Source: Acetobacteraceae bacterium (GTDB lineage Bacteria > Pseudomonadota > Alphaproteobacteria > Acetobacterales > Acetobacteraceae). Taken from it: a stretch of 64,000 nucleotides of DNA. This document shows positions 3,658 through 9,995 of the stretch, piece by piece. The DNA is taken from contig CANJLW010000001.1 of assembly GCA_947475245.1 (NCBI GenBank), positions 36,025-100,024 of the forward strand, read 5' to 3'. Every line of letters begins with the position of its first letter. Position 1 is the first letter of the stretch. The translations under genes and the position numbers were made by a program. The notes under the pieces were generated by a model. The model searched no databases, had not been told where the DNA came from, and saw nothing but the letters and a program-made list of their open reading frames with translations.

Positions 3658-4974
3658 ATGTCCCCTCCCGTCGATCAGGTCCGCTCCGACACCGAACTCC
3701 CCGACCGAGTCAGTGTCGTCGTCATCGGCGGCGGCATCATCGGCGTCACCACCGCGCTGTTCCTGGCGGAGAAAGGCATCTCCGTCGCCCTGATCGAAAA
3801 AGGCCGCATCGGTGGGGAGCAGTCGAGCCGCAACTGGGGCTGGTGCCGCACCATGGGGCGCGACATCGGCGAAATCCCGATGGCGCTGGAAAGCCTGCGC
3901 CTGTGGCGCGGCATGAACGAGCGCACCGGCCGCGAAACCGGCTTTCGCCAGCCCGGCATCCTCTATCTCTGCCGGACCGAGCAGGAAGTCGCCGCCCAGG
4001 AAGCCTGGCTGGATCAGGCGCGCCAATACCAGGTCGAATCCCGCCTGCTGCGCGGCGCCGCCCTGGAAGCCGCCATGCCCGGCGCAAGCGCCAACTTCAT
4101 CGCCGGCATGCACACCCCGTCGGACGGGCGCGCCGAACCCGCCCAGGCCGCGCCCGCCATCGCCGAAGCCGCCCGCGACCGCGGCGCGCTGATCTTCACC
4201 GGCTGCGCCGCCCGCGGCCTGGATATCCACAACGGCCGCGTCGTCGGCGTCATCACCGAACGGGGCCGCATCCGCTGCGAGTCCGTCGTCCTCGCGGGCG
4301 GCGCCTGGTCACGCCTGTTCGCCGGCAACGCCGGGCTCGATCTGCCGCAGCTTAAAGTCCTCGGCTCCGTCTTTCGCACCAAGCCGCTGTCCGGCGGGCC
4401 GGAGATCACCGCCGCCGGCTCCGTCTTCGCGCTCCGCAAGCGCCTCGACGGCGGCTATTCCATCGCGCGCCGCAATGCCAACACGACCGAAATCACCCCC
4501 GACCACTTCCGCCTGCTGTCGGACTTCCTGCCCACCATGATCGCCAACTGGCGCGAAATCCGCCTGCGCGTCGGCCAACGCAGTTGGGAGGAGTTGCGCA
4601 CCGCCCGCCATTGGTCGCTGGACGAAATCACGCCGTTCGAGGCCGTGCGCATCCTCGACCCCAAACCCAACGAAACCATCCTGCGGGAGGTCCGCGCCGA
4701 ACTGTCGCGCCTGTTCCCCGTCTTCGCGAAGATGGAAGTCGCGGAATCCTGGGGCGGGCTGATGGATGTAACGCCCGACGCCGTGCCGGTGATCGACGAG
4801 GTGCGGAAAATCCCCGGCTTCTTCGTCGCCACCGGCTTTTCCGGCCACGGCTTCGGCATCGGACCCGGCGCCGGGCGGCTGATGGCCGATCTGGTCGCGG
4901 GCGACCGCCCCGTCGTCGATCCCGCCCCGTTCCGCCTGGATCGCTTCCCGCGCACGCAAAAGCCGGTTCCCTGA
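3658..4974 (+). CDS. FAD-dependent oxidoreductase, DAO / sarcosine oxidase beta-like (AgaE-like amine oxidase)
   Basis: Start at MSPPVDQ. Rossmann motif VVVIGGGIIG, EQSSRNWGWCR, and C-terminal TPDAVPVI and GFSGHGFGIGPGAG. Confidence 0.88.
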   Translation: MSPPVDQVRSDTELPDRVSVVVIGGGIIGVTTALFLAEKGISVALIEKGRIGGEQSSRNWGWCRTMGRDIGEIPMALESLRLWRGMNERTGRETGFRQPGILYLCRTEQEVAAQEAWLDQARQYQVESRLLRGAALEAAMPGASANFIAGMHTPSDGRAEPAQAAPAIAEAARDRGALIFTGCAARGLDIHNGRVVGVITERGRIRCESVVLAGGAWSRLFAGNAGLDLPQLKVLGSVFRTKPLSGGPEITAAGSVFALRKRLDGGYSIARRNANTTEITPDHFRLLSDFLPTMIANWREIRLRVGQRSWEELRTARHWSLDEITPFEAVRILDPKPNETILREVRAELSRLFPVFAKMEVAESWGGLMDVTPDAVPVIDEVRKIPGFFVATGFSGHGFGIGPGAGRLMADLVAGDRPVVDPAPFRLDRFPRTQKPVP

Positions 4975-4988
4975 TAGGACCCGCGTCG

Positions 4989-5891
4989 ATGAGCACGTCC
5001 CTGCGCCAACGCGGGATGTTCGCCTTCATCTGCTTTGTCTGGGGCACGACCTGGCTGGGCATGAAGATCGGCATCGCCGCCGTGCCGCCCGGAGTCTTCG
5101 CCGGCCTGCGGTGGACCGTCTGCGGCGTCATCCTGCTGACCCTGCTGCGCCTGCGCGGGCACCGCGTGCTGCCGCCGCCCCGTCTGCTGCCCCGGCTGGT
5201 CTTCGTGTCGGTGTTCCTGATCACGCTGAACCAGGTGATCCAACTCTACGGCCTGAAATACATCACCGCCGGCCTCGCCGCCGTCATCAGTTCCGCCCTT
5301 ACCCCCGTCGCCCTGCTCGGCTTTGCCGTGCTGCTGGGGCAGGAACGCTTTACCTGGCGACAGGTCGGCGCAATCGCGCTGGGCATCGCCGGAGTCCTGA
5401 CCCTGTTCGGCCCCGCCGCCCTGGCCGGCACGCTGGACCTGTGGGAACTGGTCGGTGCCGGCGGAGTCACCATCGGATGCCTGTGCTATTCCTTCGGATC
5501 GGTGCTGACCCGACCGATGATGCGCACCATCGCCCCGGTGCAACTGGCCGGGCTGACGGGGCTGATCGGCGGGTCGATCCTGCTGAGCGCCTCTCTGCTG
5601 CTGGAACCCGGCGGGTGGGACGCACTGCGCCTGCACTGGGGCTGGTCGGCCTGGCTGGCCTGGCTGTATTTGCTGATCCCGGGATCGCTGATCTCCACCA
5701 CCATGTATTTCCTGCTGGTGCGCGACTGGGGCGCGAGCAAGCCCGGCACCTACGCGTTCATTTCTCCGGTGATCGCGGTCATCGTCGGCTGTTCCCTGTT
5801 CGGAGAAAAACTCCACTGGCCCGACGCGCTCGGCATGGCGCTGATGCTGTCCGGCGCGGGGCTGGCGCTGCGGCGCGGCCCGCAATCTTGA
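4989..5891 (+). CDS. EamA/DMT family transporter
   Basis: ORF 4584..5891 trimmed to MSTSLRQRGMFAFICFVWGTTW. About 10 hydrophobic segments in two repeats; WGTTW and YAFISPVIAV motifs. Confidence 0.88.
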   Translation: MSTSLRQRGMFAFICFVWGTTWLGMKIGIAAVPPGVFAGLRWTVCGVILLTLLRLRGHRVLPPPRLLPRLVFVSVFLITLNQVIQLYGLKYITAGLAAVISSALTPVALLGFAVLLGQERFTWRQVGAIALGIAGVLTLFGPAALAGTLDLWELVGAGGVTIGCLCYSFGSVLTRPMMRTIAPVQLAGLTGLIGGSILLSASLLLEPGGWDALRLHWGWSAWLAWLYLLIPGSLISTTMYFLLVRDWGASKPGTYAFISPVIAVIVGCSLFGEKLHWPDALGMALMLSGAGLALRRGPQS

Positions 5892-5904
5892 TGTGAAACA
5901 GTGT

Positions 5905-6080
5905 GGGTATCTTCGCGGCATTTCACTGGCCGAGAGAGCTGATTTTTACCACAAAGGACACCGAGGACCACAAAGGATGCACAAAGGTGTCTGAGGCGGC
6001 GTAACTCTTTGTGCCTCCTCTGTGGTCCTCGGTGTCCTCTGTGGTAAAAAATGCGATCGCGCGACCGCTCGGACGTCACC
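5905..6080. repeat. 176-bp intergenic repeat, copy 1, with long imperfect inverted repeat (arms 5942-5986 and 6007-6052)
   Basis: Ungapped match to 7086-7261 at offset 1181, 26 mismatches in 176 nt by manual count. Left arm atttttaccacaaaggacaccgaggaccacaaaggatgcacaaag matches the reverse complement of the right arm with 3 substitutions. Confidence 0.92.
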
Positions 6081-6184
6081 TGCCGGTCTCCGGCTGAACG
6101 GTAACGGGAATAAATGCGCATTTGACCCGTCCGACGGGGGCGCGTAGGGCACGCGTGCCGGCGAGCAAGGGATTGGGGGACGGA

Positions 6185-7030
6185 ATGGCGGTTGAACAGA
6201 ACGATCTGCTTCGATATGCGAATATGCAGAAATCGGTCTATAATCCAGTCGGTAAGGACAATCCGGAGGAGATCGTCGGGTGGTACGGCTACCACGAGAA
6301 TGTACCGTATGAAACGAACCTGCTGTATCGCTACGGGGATATCAGGCGCCCCATCTTTCCCGATTTTCAGAAGCTGAGGGCATTCGACATCGGATGCGGC
6401 GAAGGGCGGATGATCCGCCGCATGCAGCGGATTTTCGGCCAGGTGGACGGCGCCGATATCAGCGAGGCCATGGTGGAACACGCCCGCGCGCGCAGCCCGA
6501 ACAGTGAGATTTATGTCTCCTCGGGGCTGGATGCGGGTCAGGCACCGTCGGACACGTATGATTTTGCCTATTGCACGATTTCACTTCAGCATGTCTGCGT
6601 GCACGCCACGCGGGACGCGATTCTCGACGATATCGTCCGTATTCTGAAGCCGGACGGCAAGATGACGCTGCAAATGCTATTTTCGAAGTATTACCCTTTC
6701 CACCACCCGCGGCGGATCAGGCAACTTGGCCGATGGGGCCTGCAACTGTTCAATAAGGACAGTAACAACGGCACCTGGTTTCAAAACAAAACCGACGCGC
6801 AAGGCACCAACGGGCGCTGCGACGTGGTGATCGGCACCAACGAACTGACCGCCGTCCGCGCCGATCTGCTGAAGAAATTCGGCGTTGTCGAGTTCTGGTT
6901 CTACGATATCTCCATCGATCGCGCCGGCGCGCGTTCGTTGCCGGAGAACCATCTCAACAGTCATATCGACGATCAATACTGGGGAACGCATTTCGTCTTC
7001 ATCCACTGCGCGGAACCGCGCAAGGGCTGA
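6185..7030 (+). CDS. Class I SAM-dependent methyltransferase (Methyltransf_11/25-like)
   Basis: Motif I FDIGCGEGR, motif II VDGADISEAMV, later YDFAYCTISLQH and RILKPDGK. GC is visibly lower than the flanks. Confidence 0.85.
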   Translation: MAVEQNDLLRYANMQKSVYNPVGKDNPEEIVGWYGYHENVPYETNLLYRYGDIRRPIFPDFQKLRAFDIGCGEGRMIRRMQRIFGQVDGADISEAMVEHARARSPNSEIYVSSGLDAGQAPSDTYDFAYCTISLQHVCVHATRDAILDDIVRILKPDGKMTLQMLFSKYYPFHHPRRIRQLGRWGLQLFNKDSNNGTWFQNKTDAQGTNGRCDVVIGTNELTAVRADLLKKFGVVEFWFYDISIDRAGARSLPENHLNSHIDDQYWGTHFVFIHCAEPRKG

Positions 7031-7037
7031 GTCGCGG

Positions 7038-7057
7038 TCAGGGGGCGATCCCCCTGA
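7038..7057 (+). terminator. Perfect 8-bp GC hairpin just after the methyltransferase stop (possible weak terminator)
   Basis: TCAGGGGG-CGAT-CCCCCTGA; only a short TTG tail follows. Confidence 0.45.
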
Positions 7058-7085
7058 TTGCCGTCATGATCGGTCGAGACAGTTC

Positions 7086-7261
7086 GGGTATCCTGGCGGC
7101 GTTTCAGTGGTCGAGAGGCCGGATTTTTACCACGGAGGACACGGAGAACCACAAAGGATGCACAAAGGTGCCTGAGGAGGCGTCAATCTTTGTGCCTCCT
7201 TTGTGGTCCTTTGTGTCCTTTGTGGTAAAAAATGCGGTCTCGCAACCGGTTGGACGTGACC
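7086..7261. repeat. 176-bp intergenic repeat, copy 2, with long imperfect inverted repeat (about 7123-7233)
   Basis: Direct repeat of 5905-6080 with the same hairpin architecture. Confidence 0.92.
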
Positions 7262-7381
7262 CGTGCCCCCCGTCAACGCGCCGAACGAACACCCGCACGG
7301 CATTCCCTTCCCCCCGATGCCGCCGTATGCTGCGCTTGCTGCCCAACCGACGGGGAAGGGGCAAGGGAGAACCGATCGCTC

Positions 7382-8782
7382 GTGGCGCTGAAACCGACGG
7401 GATTCTGGAGCTATTCCAGCACTGACGAGGCTGCCTCCAATGGCCGGTTAAGCCGGTTGCGGCAGCAGATCGAACGCGAGTTACAGCTACAAGTCGGTCG
7501 GCCGAAGGTTGAAATCTTCCACGATATCACCTCCATTCCGCCTGGCACGGATTGGAACGACGTGATCACGGCGGCGCTCGAAAACTCCTCCTTCTTCATT
7601 CCAATCATTACCCCCGCTTTCCTGCACAGCGAGGTTTGCGCGTGGGAGGTAAAGACGTTCCGCGACATCATGAAAAAGCGTGGTCGTCACGACCTGATAG
7701 TCCCTATCTATTATTTGGATGTGGATGCACACGGGGTCGAACGCCGCCACGAATGGCACGATCCGACGATCCTGGATTTTTTGTTGACAAAGCACTGGTT
7801 GGATTTTCGTGCGTTGCGCGTCCGGGATCCGTCGACCGAGCCGGTGACCGAGTGGGTCGCCAAGACCGGGAAGGCAATCTATGCGACGCTCTCTAAGCCA
7901 CCCTCTAAACCGTTCACGACGTCGCCCGAGCAGAATACCCAGCAAGACCATCCGACTCCGCAGCCTTCGGTGTCCGTCAAACCCGTCCGCGCCCCCGGCA
8001 CCCGCTTCCGCGACCAGCCCCACTTTCCCGAAATGGTCGTCATCTCCCCCGGTCGCTTCATCATGGGTAGCGACAAATCCGGCCCCCACGCCGAACCGGG
8101 ACACAACAGCGACGAATCCCCCGCCCACGAAGTCGGCATCGCCGCCGCTTTCGCGCTCGGCCGCCTGCCGGTCACAAGGGGCGAATACGCCGCCTTCGTC
8201 AAGGCAACCGGCTACGATGCGGGCTCGGACTGGCAAGAACCCGACTTCCCCCAGACCGACGATCACCCCGTCGTGGGCGTGTCGTGGATCGATGCGGAGG
8301 CGTTTATCGATTGGCTGAACGCAGACCTTGCCGATAAACCCTACCGCCTGCCGACGGAGGCGGAATGGGAATACGCCGCGCGAGGGCAGACCGTGCTCGG
8401 CCCCCGGACGGAATTCGCGACCGGCGCGCGGATCGAACCCAACCAGGCGCAATACCGTTGGTCCGAAAGCTACGCCGGGTCGAAAACCCGATCCAAGGGC
8501 GCGCCCGGCACGGCGGTCGCGGGCAGCTTCCCGGGCAATGCGTTCGGCCTGCGCGATATGCACGGCAACGTCTGGGAATGGACGCAGGATGCCTATCGGG
8601 ACTCCTACAACGGCGCCCCGGACGACGGCAGCGCCATGGAGTTCACCCATTTCGAGTATCGCGTCCTGCGGGGCGGGTCCTGGATCTACAAGCCAAGGGA
8701 CCTGCGTTCTGCAACCCGCATCGAGGGTAAGCCTTCCGTCCGTGCCCCCTGGCTCGGCGTTCGGGTTGCGAGGACGCTGTAA
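7382..8782 (+). CDS. TIR-domain + FGE-sulfatase (SUMF1 / C-type lectin fold) fusion protein
   Basis: Probable GTG start at 7382 after GGAGA, in frame with ORF 7232..8782. TIR N-terminus: GFWSYSSTD, IFHDITSIPPGTDW, FFIPIITPAFLHSEVCAWEV. A Pro/Gln/Thr/Ser linker follows, then FGE motifs FPEMVVISPGRFIMGS, DESPAHEV, HPVVGVSWIDA, YRLPTEAEWEYAAR, NAFGLRDMHGNVWEW and RVLRGGSW. Confidence 0.88.
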   Translation: MALKPTGFWSYSSTDEAASNGRLSRLRQQIERELQLQVGRPKVEIFHDITSIPPGTDWNDVITAALENSSFFIPIITPAFLHSEVCAWEVKTFRDIMKKRGRHDLIVPIYYLDVDAHGVERRHEWHDPTILDFLLTKHWLDFRALRVRDPSTEPVTEWVAKTGKAIYATLSKPPSKPFTTSPEQNTQQDHPTPQPSVSVKPVRAPGTRFRDQPHFPEMVVISPGRFIMGSDKSGPHAEPGHNSDESPAHEVGIAAAFALGRLPVTRGEYAAFVKATGYDAGSDWQEPDFPQTDDHPVVGVSWIDAEAFIDWLNADLADKPYRLPTEAEWEYAARGQTVLGPRTEFATGARIEPNQAQYRWSESYAGSKTRSKGAPGTAVAGSFPGNAFGLRDMHGNVWEWTQDAYRDSYNGAPDDGSAMEFTHFEYRVLRGGSWIYKPRDLRSATRIEGKPSVRAPWLGVRVARTL

Positions 8783-8839
8783 CCTCTTGATTTTTTCAAT
8801 TTTTTACCTCTTGGGGTGGTCTGGAGGGGCGCTTGCCCC
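8660..8839 (+). other. Candidate DGR variable region with downstream pyrimidine tract and GC hairpin
   Basis: The C-terminus RVLRGGSW-IYK-P-R-D-LRSA-T-R-IEGK-P-SV-R-APWL-G-V-RVARTL* fits the DGR CLec VR scaffold. It is followed by cctctt-T-rich-cctctt (8783-8812) and the hairpin GGGGC-GCTT-GCCCC (8826-8839). No template repeat or RT in the window. Confidence 0.5.
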
Positions 8840-8961
8840 GCGGCCGTGCCGCCGTTCCGGCCGGTAACGCCGAGCTTGGCGCGCGGGAAGGGTGTTTCGT
8901 ATAATCGACGGTCCTGATCCACCCCGCCCGCCCGGTCAAAGCCGGACTTTGTTTTGCCGCG

Positions 8962-9660
8962 AAAGAACCCCTTGCACCCTGAACAACACCCCGCCGCCCG
9001 GTGCCGCAAGCCGACGCTTTTCGATGCCGGGAGTGACACGGTGTCGGCGCGGCGTTTCACGAAGGCGTTGGATCGACGCGCGGCAGGCCACCCGAACCTC
9101 CGCCGGACCCGCGCGGACAAGCAATCCGACGGCAACACCCTATGCGCCGTGAGGATGCCTCCCGCGGTCCGGCAGGCTCCGCGAAACGCCCACGCAAACA
9201 ATGTCGCCCAACCCGCCCCCGCGCGGGCCGCGTCGAATGGAAATCCAACAGCAAAGACCCCATGCAACCTGAACAACGCCCCACCGCCCGGTGCCGCCCT
9301 TATGATGCACGGAGTTTCACGAAGTCATCGGATCGACGCGCGGCAGGCCACCCGAACCTCCGCCGGACCCGCGCGGAAAAGCAGTCCGACGGCAACACCC
9401 TATGCGCCGTGAGGATGCCTCCCGCGGTCCGGCAGGCTCCGCGAACCTCCCACGCAAACACTGTCGCCCAACCCGCCCCCGCCGAGGCCGCGTGGAATGG
9501 AAATCCGACGCAAAGACCCCATGCACCCTGAACAACGCCCCGCCGCCCGCCGCCGCTTACCGCGATGGCGCGGCGTTTCACAAAGGCGTCGGATCGCCCC
9601 GCCGCCATCGAGAACCGGAAATCCGGGGGAATTACCCCATACACCCTGAGCAATCCCCGC
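8962..9660. repeat. Degenerate tandem repeat: units 8962-9252, 9253-9511, partial 9512-about 9630, fourth motif about 9631-9660
   Basis: Each unit opens with a variant of aaagaccccatgcaccctgaacaac. Segments 9071-9250 and 9331-9510 differ at 11 of 180 positions (manual count). Confidence 0.9.
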
Positions 9661-9677
9661 GGGCCGAGGCGTCGGCG

Positions 9678-9995
9678 CTACTTCCCAGGCTCGACCCGCG
9701 CCACCCAGACCAGCCGACCCAGACGCGCCAGGTTCTCCGGCGTCACCTGGCGCAGGCGGATGCGGTTCACCGCCTTGTCACGCCCGGCGAAGACGCCGTA
9801 GCGGGCCAGACGTTCATTGTGGAACCGTTCCGGATTGAAATCCAGCACCACGATCACGGTGCGCGGCTCGCTCGCCCCGCGCAGGCTTGGGTCAAGCCGA
9901 TGCGCCGCCGTCGCCATGCCGACAAGGTCCTGCCCGAACAGCACCAGGGCGATCAGCAGTACGCCGATCAGCAGGCGTATGCGCGCGGCGCGCAT
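9678..9995 (-). CDS. Small hypothetical protein (105 aa) with N-terminal signal/TM segment; last gene of the ABC operon
   Basis: ATG 3 bp after the permease stop; hydrophobic stretch LLIGVLLIALVLFG; GC-rich third codon positions. Confidence 0.65.
   Translation of the reverse strand: MRAARIRLLIGVLLIALVLFGQDLVGMATAAHRLDPSLRGASEPRTVIVVLDFNPERFHNERLARYGVFAGRDKAVNRIRLRQVTPENLARLGRLVWVARVEPGK

Follow-up and report, generated by a model that had tools for sequence, protein, structure and literature searches.

A TIR-FGE fusion gene of an Acetobacteraceae bacterium belongs to a described class of effector-sensor proteins

Proteins that couple an effector domain to a sensor of the FGS or C-type-lectin (CLec) type are known from earlier computational work. 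In predicted conflict systems, FGS domains have effector partners on their N-terminal side (Kaur, Burroughs, Iyer, Aravind, 2020, PMC7159879; 2021, PMC8195603), and multidomain variable proteins of diversity-generating retroelements (DGRs) that bear a TIR domain are found in cyanobacteria (PMC7517822). CLec 'antigen sensors' diversified by DGRs carry TIR or CHAT domains (PMC10907252), and STAND receptors with FGE-sulfatase sensors are also on record (PMC13581612). Here we analysed a stretch of 64,000 nt from Acetobacteraceae bacterium (assembly GCA_947475245.1, contig CANJLW010000001.1, positions 36,025-100,024 of the forward strand), hereafter the window, in which coordinates count from the first letter of the stretch. 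The window contains a gene for a TIR domain fused to a fold of the formylglycine-generating enzyme (FGE) type, and this gene is a member, in itself an ordinary one, of the described class that combines an effector with an FGS/CLec sensor.

With the FGS conflict systems (PMC7159879) the window protein shares a C-terminal non-catalytic FGS domain preceded by an N-terminal partner, here a TIR, in the published 'syntax'; the published FGS domains are predicted to bind invader molecules. However, those systems centre on MoxR-vWA ternary, iSTAND and GTPase cores and on effector-associated domains (EADs), whereas the window protein is a bare two-domain product of a unicellular-type alphaproteobacterial genome. 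In fact, no MoxR ATPase, vWA, VMAP or EAD component was present among the scanned neighbours in the window or beside the paralogues. The CLec/FGE variable proteins of DGRs (TvpA, 2y3c, and TIR-, kinase- and caspase-bearing targets; PMC7517822, PMC10907252) have the same fold and the RGGSW...R...R...GFR scaffold, but the window genome has neither a template repeat (TR) nor a DGR reverse transcriptase (RT), nor a significant footprint in the tip codons. The TIR NADase effectors (ThsB, TIR-APAZ, AbTir, TIR-SAVED) and the plant TIR-NLRs share the fold of the N-terminal domain and a Glu within an SxxCxxE(L/V) helix; unlike them, the window protein has no ThsA, Argonaute, SAVED or NTPase partner, and NAD+ cleavage is a candidate activity only. 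Receptors of the STAND/NLR-like type (PMC13581612) follow the same effector-sensor logic with the same sensor fold, whereas the window protein is devoid of the STAND NTPase switch. PvdO (5hha) is the closest solved structure to the window FGE (36-37% identity, target TM-score 0.84), and PvdO, Tsi3 and the window FGE are all Cys-less FGE folds. Nevertheless, PvdO and Tsi3 are periplasmic single-domain proteins of pyoverdine and type VI secretion system (T6SS) clusters, whereas the window protein has no signal peptide, is fused to a TIR and lies in neither context. Attempts to place it among the true FGEs, EgtB, PvdO, Thoeris, the STAND receptors or the ternary systems all failed.

The gene and the parts of its product are the following:

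7382..8782, forward strand: TIR-FGE gene, GTG start, TAA stop, 466 aa (translation of the open reading frame, ORF)
7382..7897, forward strand: TIR domain, residues 1-172 (Pfam TIR_2, AlphaFold, Foldseek)
7628..7651, forward strand: SEVCAWEV motif, residues 83-90, with the codon of Glu89 at 7646-7648 (alignment to the L6 TIR)
7898..8026, forward strand: linker rich in Pro, Ser, Thr and Gln, residues 173-215 (43 residues), with a predicted local distance difference test score (pLDDT) <50 at residues 179-198
8027..8773, forward strand: FGE-sulfatase (C-type-lectin-like) fold, residues 216-464, Cys-less and PvdO-like (Pfam, PDB matches)
8669..8764, forward strand: DGR-type variable-region scaffold, residues 430-461 (mapped on the TR and variable regions of locus L111, described below)
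8763..8795, forward strand: terminator-like hairpin and T-run that overlap the stop codon (consensus scan only)

An earlier note on this DNA, made from the letters alone, had described a TIR domain fused to a non-catalytic FGE domain without an evident signal peptide, and all its sequence statements are correct. The fusion was confirmed by Pfam matches to TIR_2 and FGE-sulfatase, the only Pfam domains of the protein (no STAND NTPase domain was among them), and by agreement of the AlphaFold and Foldseek folds. The full-length AlphaFold model (pLDDT 84) consists of two well-folded domains joined by a linker disordered at residues 179-198. The highest 19-residue Kyte-Doolittle mean is only 1.25, such that the protein has neither a signal peptide, as the note had stated, nor a membrane segment.

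We took GTG 7382 as the start because a database entry of 466 aa (P0002), retrieved in the homologue search of the protein collection, is identical to the window protein, because all full-length homologues share the N-terminus M..L.P.GFWSY in their alignment, and because a palindromic repeat of 108 bp ends at 7231. A longer ORF from ATG 7232 was ruled out on the same grounds, as homologues begin at GFWSY and the repeat ends just before that codon. The frame is intact, the GC content at the third codon position is 0.76, typical for genes of the host genome, and GC varies with codon position as it does in a real gene. A plausible ribosome-binding site precedes the start, and the terminator-like hairpin at 8763..8795 suggests a monocistronic unit.

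The N-terminal domain models as a TIR, a check that the earlier note had proposed for its reading. Pfam TIR_2 (PF13676) matches residues 39-127 with 45.4 bits against a cut-off of 28 (E 1.4e-11), and the TIR-only AlphaFold model reaches a pLDDT of 92.8. The best 50 PDB matches of this model in Foldseek are TIR domains without exception (50/50), among them plant RPP1, RPS4 and L6/L7, the SPARTA TIR-APAZ, AbTir (target TM-score 0.74) and animal TLRs. In a phmmer alignment SEVCAWEV falls on SKWCLMEL of the flax L6 TIR, whose Glu is the catalytic residue in plant and bacterial TIR NADases; therefore Glu89 stands at the position of the catalytic Glu. The claim that this Glu is kept holds beyond the single protein, since an alignment of 29 full-length TIR-FGE homologues shows Glu89 as invariant, likewise F8, S10, Y11, D15, D48, G55, W58 and C86, with S83 at a conservation of at least 90%. 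Among the best clade representatives listed and aligned, S83, C86 and E89 are each at least 90% conserved. NAD+ cleavage is a candidate activity of the window TIR.

The C-terminal part is matched by Pfam FGE-sulfatase at residues 216-464 (E 6e-63). In the full model it is closest to PvdO 5hha, both by fold and by sequence (E 2.7e-42), followed by true FGEs, ToxD, CalU17 and the DGR variable protein TvpA; FGE structures match the window model with a Foldseek E of about 1e-17. The RGGSW motif occupies residues 430-434. When aligned to human FGE, the window protein has Tyr436 in place of Cys336 and a 3-residue deletion where Cys341 would be, so the copper site of true FGEs is absent, in agreement with the earlier note, which had reported the RGGSW motif without the catalytic Cys pair. 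No Cys was found at either position in the full-length homologues aligned (0/29). The protein was accordingly rejected as a true formylglycine-generating enzyme (SUMF1/FGE), since the fold is present and the copper-binding C336/C341 pair is missing. It was also rejected as a sulfoxide synthase of the EgtB/OvoA/SenA type (no Pfam DinB_2 domain; EgtB 101.7 bits against a cut-off of 360) and as a PvdO equivalog (187.8 bits against a cut-off of 500, no signal peptide, neighbours that are not pvd genes). Even PvdO, once purified, showed neither cofactor nor activity (PMC6206403). Tsi3, a T6SS immunity protein that is FGE-like, works by protein binding with no catalysis (bioRxiv 10.1101/2021.05.21.445229), which gives independent support for a Cys-less FGE fold that acts purely by binding. 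TIR-FGE homologues are named 'SUMF1/EgtB/PvdO family nonheme iron enzyme' at NCBI and 'formylglycine-generating enzyme required for sulfatase activity' at JGI. As the Cys pair and the DinB domain are missing, both names mislead for this family, and the public product name 'nonheme iron enzyme' is probably misleading for the TIR-FGE homologues.

A function for the C-terminal tip is suggested by a homologue, P0011, with 42% identity to the window protein over its full length. P0011 is encoded in locus L111 (1-7500), on a contig of an Acetobacteraceae metagenome-assembled genome, near a bAvd gene (4139-4528) and a reverse transcriptase gene (4470-5825). A 127-nt repeat occurs there three times, in the 3' portion of the RT gene as called and at the 3' ends of the upstream FGE gene and of the P0011 gene:

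L111 5614-5740: template repeat (TR), the RT-proximal copy of the 127-nt repeat
L111 3914-4040: variable region (VR) of the upstream target, a split pair of TIR (157 aa) and FGE (520 aa)
L111 7368-7494: VR of the fused TIR-FGE protein P0011

In the alignment of the copies, all differences inside the repeat lie at adenines of the TR. The RT carries IGNLTSQ, and the motif IGxxxSQ is typical of DGR enzymes. Judging from these parts, L111 is a complete DGR with a TIR-FGE protein among its targets. Two BrxC/BrxD-like genes lie just upstream in the same locus.

The window protein has the same C-terminal VR scaffold on its CLec/FGE fold. The nine Asn codons of the L111 TR correspond to window residues 435, 437, 440, 447, 449, 453, 455, 456 and 457, at which the family alignment reaches its highest entropy, and the variable tip is bracketed by the invariant residues R430, G431, G432, R442, R446 and R461. 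The FGE tip would then be the binding surface of the protein, a view that is partly supported by this evidence from the family.

We then asked whether the window gene is itself diversified. The host assembly (5.23 Mb, 64.6% GC, 89 contigs, 99% complete) yielded no template repeat, given that blastn searches with the complete gene and with the terminal 260 nt of all nine FGE genes matched only paralogous coding regions and that repeat searches beside the paralogues returned no TR. Likewise, no DGR RT was found in the 89 contigs by a Pfam RVT_1 search, by tblastn with a DGR RT or by a relatives search at E <= 1e-25. The sole tblastn match (24% identity) was the RT of a group II intron, the only reverse transcriptase found in the genome:

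C46:7441-9295 (locus L105 4040-5895), reverse strand: group II intron (Rfam RF02005 and RF00029) with an RT-maturase ORF carrying GGPLSP

The Rfam parts are D1-D4-6 and domain V/VI, and the intron looks complete; by coordinate arithmetic it begins about 87 bp past the stop of the TIR-FGE gene on contig C46. An active or remote DGR target was therefore rejected, as there is no TR, no DGR RT and no RT outside the intron. Among the nine tip codons there are six NNC, one NNT and two NNG on a background of 45% C-ending codons, and the footprint of adenine mutagenesis was not significant at these nine codons (binomial estimate, P about 0.17).

Traces of such elements are nonetheless present in the lineage. 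bAvd genes or relics lie directly downstream of two FGE genes of the host, at C12:17819-18109 (forward strand) and C5:179984-180187 (reverse strand), and these sites look like decayed DGR cassettes. An RT of the L111 type occurs in 4 of 15 congeners (G004, G007, G014, G015), in each case adjoining an FGE gene, and several of these RTs are broken by stop codons or shortened, which suggests recurrent DGR decay in the genus. From the bAvd relics and the RTs of the congeners it follows that the lineage once had DGR-FGE cassettes and that the host genome lost the enzyme, such that the window gene is not currently diversified.

Most of the 120 best homologue clusters combine PF13676 with PF03781. 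The short forms of TIR-FGE proteins, the window protein among them, are soluble and have 445-510 aa; the long ones have 560-720 aa with a strongly hydrophobic segment between TIR and FGE, which should place the TIR inside the cell and the FGE outside. The TIR domain alone matches 3,204 representative clusters at E <= 0.001, and 1,911 remain at E <= 1e-10. All of the nearest 109 representatives of this clade have TIR_2 (109/109), to which FGE is added in 28, Sel1 in 7, TPR in about 4, OmpA in 2 and WD40 in 1, and the remaining ones show no further domain recognised by Pfam. From these varied fusions the TIR clade appears as an N-terminal module mounted on interchangeable binding domains, without an NTPase. 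Many TIR-FGE homologues have no DGR nearby; one lies beside PIN, HicB and Uma2 genes and another beside BrxC/BrxD-like genes.

The host genome encodes ten FGE-domain proteins. Four of them are TIR-FGE genes, namely the window gene and those on contigs C18, C46 and C64. The C18 paralogue is 48% identical to the window protein over the full length. The C64 paralogue (C64:7404-9581, reverse strand, locus L106) has a TIR, one membrane segment FAAGVFGLAVGAGSAVAIV, a long spacer rich in Ala, Glu and Lys, which is probably a coiled coil, and the FGE; its layout resembles that of a Toll-like receptor, with the TIR predicted to be cytoplasmic and the FGE outside. The other FGE proteins comprise three confirmed pentapeptide-FGE proteins, one with an unassigned N-terminus, EgtB, and a double-FGE protein whose N-terminus is pentapeptide-like by eye only. 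The window TIR is nearest to the TIR of C18 (54%), whereas the window FGE is nearest to that of C64 (49%, 245 bits against 175 bits for C18); the two genealogies disagree, which indicates domain shuffling.

Altogether the genome has six paralogous TIR domains of one clade. The two same-clade paralogues without an FGE are on C14 and C2. The C14 gene (C14:8836-10815, reverse strand; L107 4836-6815) encodes 659 aa with a TIR, a hydrophobic stretch that probably spans the membrane, an unassigned middle and a C-terminal TIR_2 (125.7 bits over its two TIR_2 stretches). A Uma2-family gene adjoins it. The C2 gene (C2:303114-304111; L108 6114-7111) encodes a TIR-only protein of 202 aa in which the Cys of the motif is replaced by Arg and the Glu is kept; its stop and the start of the next ORF overlap, and the 129-aa product of that ORF is hydrophobic at its C-terminus, so that the pair may be a two-gene module of a TIR and a membrane protein. 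The paralogues stand alone among housekeeping genes (GAPDH, ADH, EPSP-synthase-family, amidase).

We propose, at roughly an even chance of being right, that the window protein is a stand-alone soluble cytoplasmic sensor-effector whose tip would bind a ligand, upon which TIR domains would gather and NAD+ would be cleaved. The proposal builds on the two folds, the conserved Glu, the absent catalytic residues of the FGE, a tip that is diversifiable in the family, the modularity of the domains and the accessory distribution of the gene; beyond these we infer a ligand, oligomerisation, an NADase output and a biological role. The variable tip (residues 435-457) would bind a specific macromolecule; the likeliest ligand is a protein or a glycan that comes from a phage, from another mobile element or from a competitor. 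Binding would bring the TIR domains together, and the gathered TIRs might cleave NAD+, with either its depletion (growth arrest or abortive infection) or an ADP-ribose-derived signal as the outcome. No conserved partner gene was shared by the neighbours of the window gene, of its three paralogues and of four homologues, and for this reason we expect the gene to work alone; it is one member of a paralogous repertoire of four TIR-FGE and at least three pentapeptide-FGE genes. The patchy accessory distribution, the break in synteny, the dip in GC and the repeats around the gene, together with the PIN, HicB, Uma2, BrxC and BrxD neighbours of homologues, amount to conflict-like behaviour.

Several observations weigh against this model. 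The family consensus of the TIR motif is SEWCCxEV, and its Trp is a Val at position 85 of the window protein, although that column is variable across the TIR-FGE family. A conserved Glu is no proof of NADase activity, for some TIR domains are scaffolds. The window protein has no oligomerisation module such as a STAND NTPase, and a cytoplasmic ligand is an assumption, given that the closest FGE domains (<=57% identity) are found in membrane forms or in proteins that have a signal-like segment at the N-terminus. The neighbourhood is metabolic, with a hydantoinase, a DAO oxidoreductase, an EamA transporter and an S-adenosylmethionine (SAM) methyltransferase upstream, and the housekeeping surroundings of the paralogues point the same way. 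The earlier note had named PADLOC among the checks of its reading, and the run returned no known system, only weak generic TIR matches (ThsB, E 1e-4). In the literature searched we found no experiment on any TIR-FGE protein. The reading of that note, a cytoplasmic receptor in which ligand binding drives TIR clustering, possibly for anti-phage defence or kin recognition, therefore fared unevenly: its receptor part gained from the DGR-varied FGE tip of P0011 and from the modular TIR clade, while the metabolic neighbours, the weak PADLOC matches and the lack of a partner speak against it. Ligand-driven TIR clustering and NAD+ cleavage are putative, and the computational data do not separate an anti-phage from a kin-recognition role.

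Other explanations deserve to be weighed beside the sensor-effector model. The TIR could be an adaptor, in which case the TIR-FGE sensors would signal through TIR-TIR contacts to the TIR proteins of C14 and C2, in the manner of a TLR and its adaptor. Six same-clade TIR domains in one genome, the two TIR domains and probable membrane span of C14, and, on C2, a TIR-only protein whose gene overlaps the ORF of 129 aa with the hydrophobic C-terminus would suit such a circuit; an invariant Glu at the catalytic position argues for enzymatic use, and the paralogues are dispersed and never co-located, so that we consider the adaptor role rather unlikely. A broader version of it, distinctly unlikely in our judgement, would make the TIR-FGE genes (three soluble, one membrane) and the pentapeptide-FGE genes a germline repertoire of Toll-like pattern receptors, whose tips were written by a DGR in an ancestor and frozen at the loss of the retroelement, and which signal to C14 and C2 by TIR-TIR contacts. 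If this were true, it would be a bacterial family of fixed innate receptors derived from an adaptive-like diversification system. The same chemistry might also serve a non-immune sensor, for self or kin recognition or for a physiological or stress signal. Paralogues set among housekeeping genes with no defence island would agree with it, as would the reading of cyanobacterial multidomain DGR variable proteins as tuning regulatory pathways (PMC7517822). Nevertheless, the gene is species-specific and patchy in the genus, and the DGR diversification of homologues with their BrxC/D-like and toxin-antitoxin neighbours suits conflict better; a non-immune role thus seems unlikely to us.

Two further explanations concern the state of the gene and the chemistry of its C-terminal domain. 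The gene might be a decaying relic, its function lost, of a DGR variable protein that has outlived its retroelement, and the genome indeed has no DGR RT or TR, keeps bAvd relics after two other FGE genes and has congeners in which several DGR RTs are broken. However, the frame of 466 codons is intact with all family-invariant residues kept, the GC content by codon position is as expected for a real gene, the gene has both a plausible ribosome-binding site and a terminator-like site, and many homologues do without any DGR nearby, all of which makes decay improbable. The least credible explanation, highly improbable in our view, is that the C-terminal domain is an oxidoreductase or modifying enzyme like PvdO, FGE or EgtB, with a TIR that merely regulates or localises it. 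It draws on PvdO as the best NCBIfam and PDB match and on the nonheme iron enzyme name of the homologues. Against it stand the missing Cu-binding Cys pair, the lack of a DinB_2 domain for EgtB-type chemistry, NCBIfam scores that are all far under their cut-offs (PvdO 188 against 500, EgtB 102 against 360) and the lack of cofactor or activity in purified PvdO (PMC6206403). Moreover, residues 435-441, which align with the Cys-pair segment of FGE, fall within the region that is hypermutated by the DGR of the homologue, which is incompatible with a fixed active site.

Were the sensor-effector mechanism true, proteins of this kind would be the simplest conceivable immune receptors, with one binding and one NAD-cleaving domain, no NTPase switch and no partner, and they would exist in matched cytoplasmic and membrane-spanning versions. 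The TIR clade is large, with about 1,900 representative clusters at E <= 1e-10, and about one quarter of the nearest ones carry an FGE. A soluble protein of 466 aa with E89 and a tip at 435-457 is a convenient, compact test case, and there is also value in the picture at the level of the genome, a paralogous receptor set left after the loss of a retroelement.

The site of the gene in the host is a variable spot with no recognisable defence island. Among 24 congeneric genomes there was no relative above 48% identity, and the closest relative is the paralogue in the host genome itself. Synteny with four congeners stops right after EamA, just upstream of the gene; no empty insertion site could be demonstrated in these four because synteny simply stops there. 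The lack of a relative in the congeners and the synteny break indicate a species-specific gene in a variable spot. Thoeris was rejected on the weak ThsB match in PADLOC (E 1e-4) and on scanned neighbours that are a methyltransferase, EamA and an ABC permease; an ABC transporter operon lies downstream on the opposite strand. No tRNA or Rfam feature was found near the gene.

The GC content is 0.57-0.60 across positions 5500-8000 of the window, against 0.65-0.70 elsewhere, and repeats flank the gene on both sides:

7124..7231, no strand assigned: palindromic element of 108 bp (7120-7235 when taken as a 116-bp element) with 44-nt arms and CCACAAAGG-like sub-repeats, just upstream of the gene
5941-6054, no strand assigned: second palindromic copy, 89% identical to the upstream one
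8962..9660, no strand assigned: array of about three tandem units of a repeat of about 260 bp, units 88-92% identical (blastn), directly downstream of the gene

The two palindromic copies bracket the low-GC methyltransferase gene at 6122-7030, and more copies, full or half, occur at C1:490903 and on C36, C5, C3 and C20. Tandem Repeats Finder reported nothing at 8700-9800, though blastn shows the units of about 260 bp. This repeat family is found at six or more other loci, with arrays at C1:277905-278850, C2:42786-43797 and C5:178070-179067 and also on C27, C23 and C39. On C5 the array comes right after a different FGE gene and the bAvd relic that follows it.

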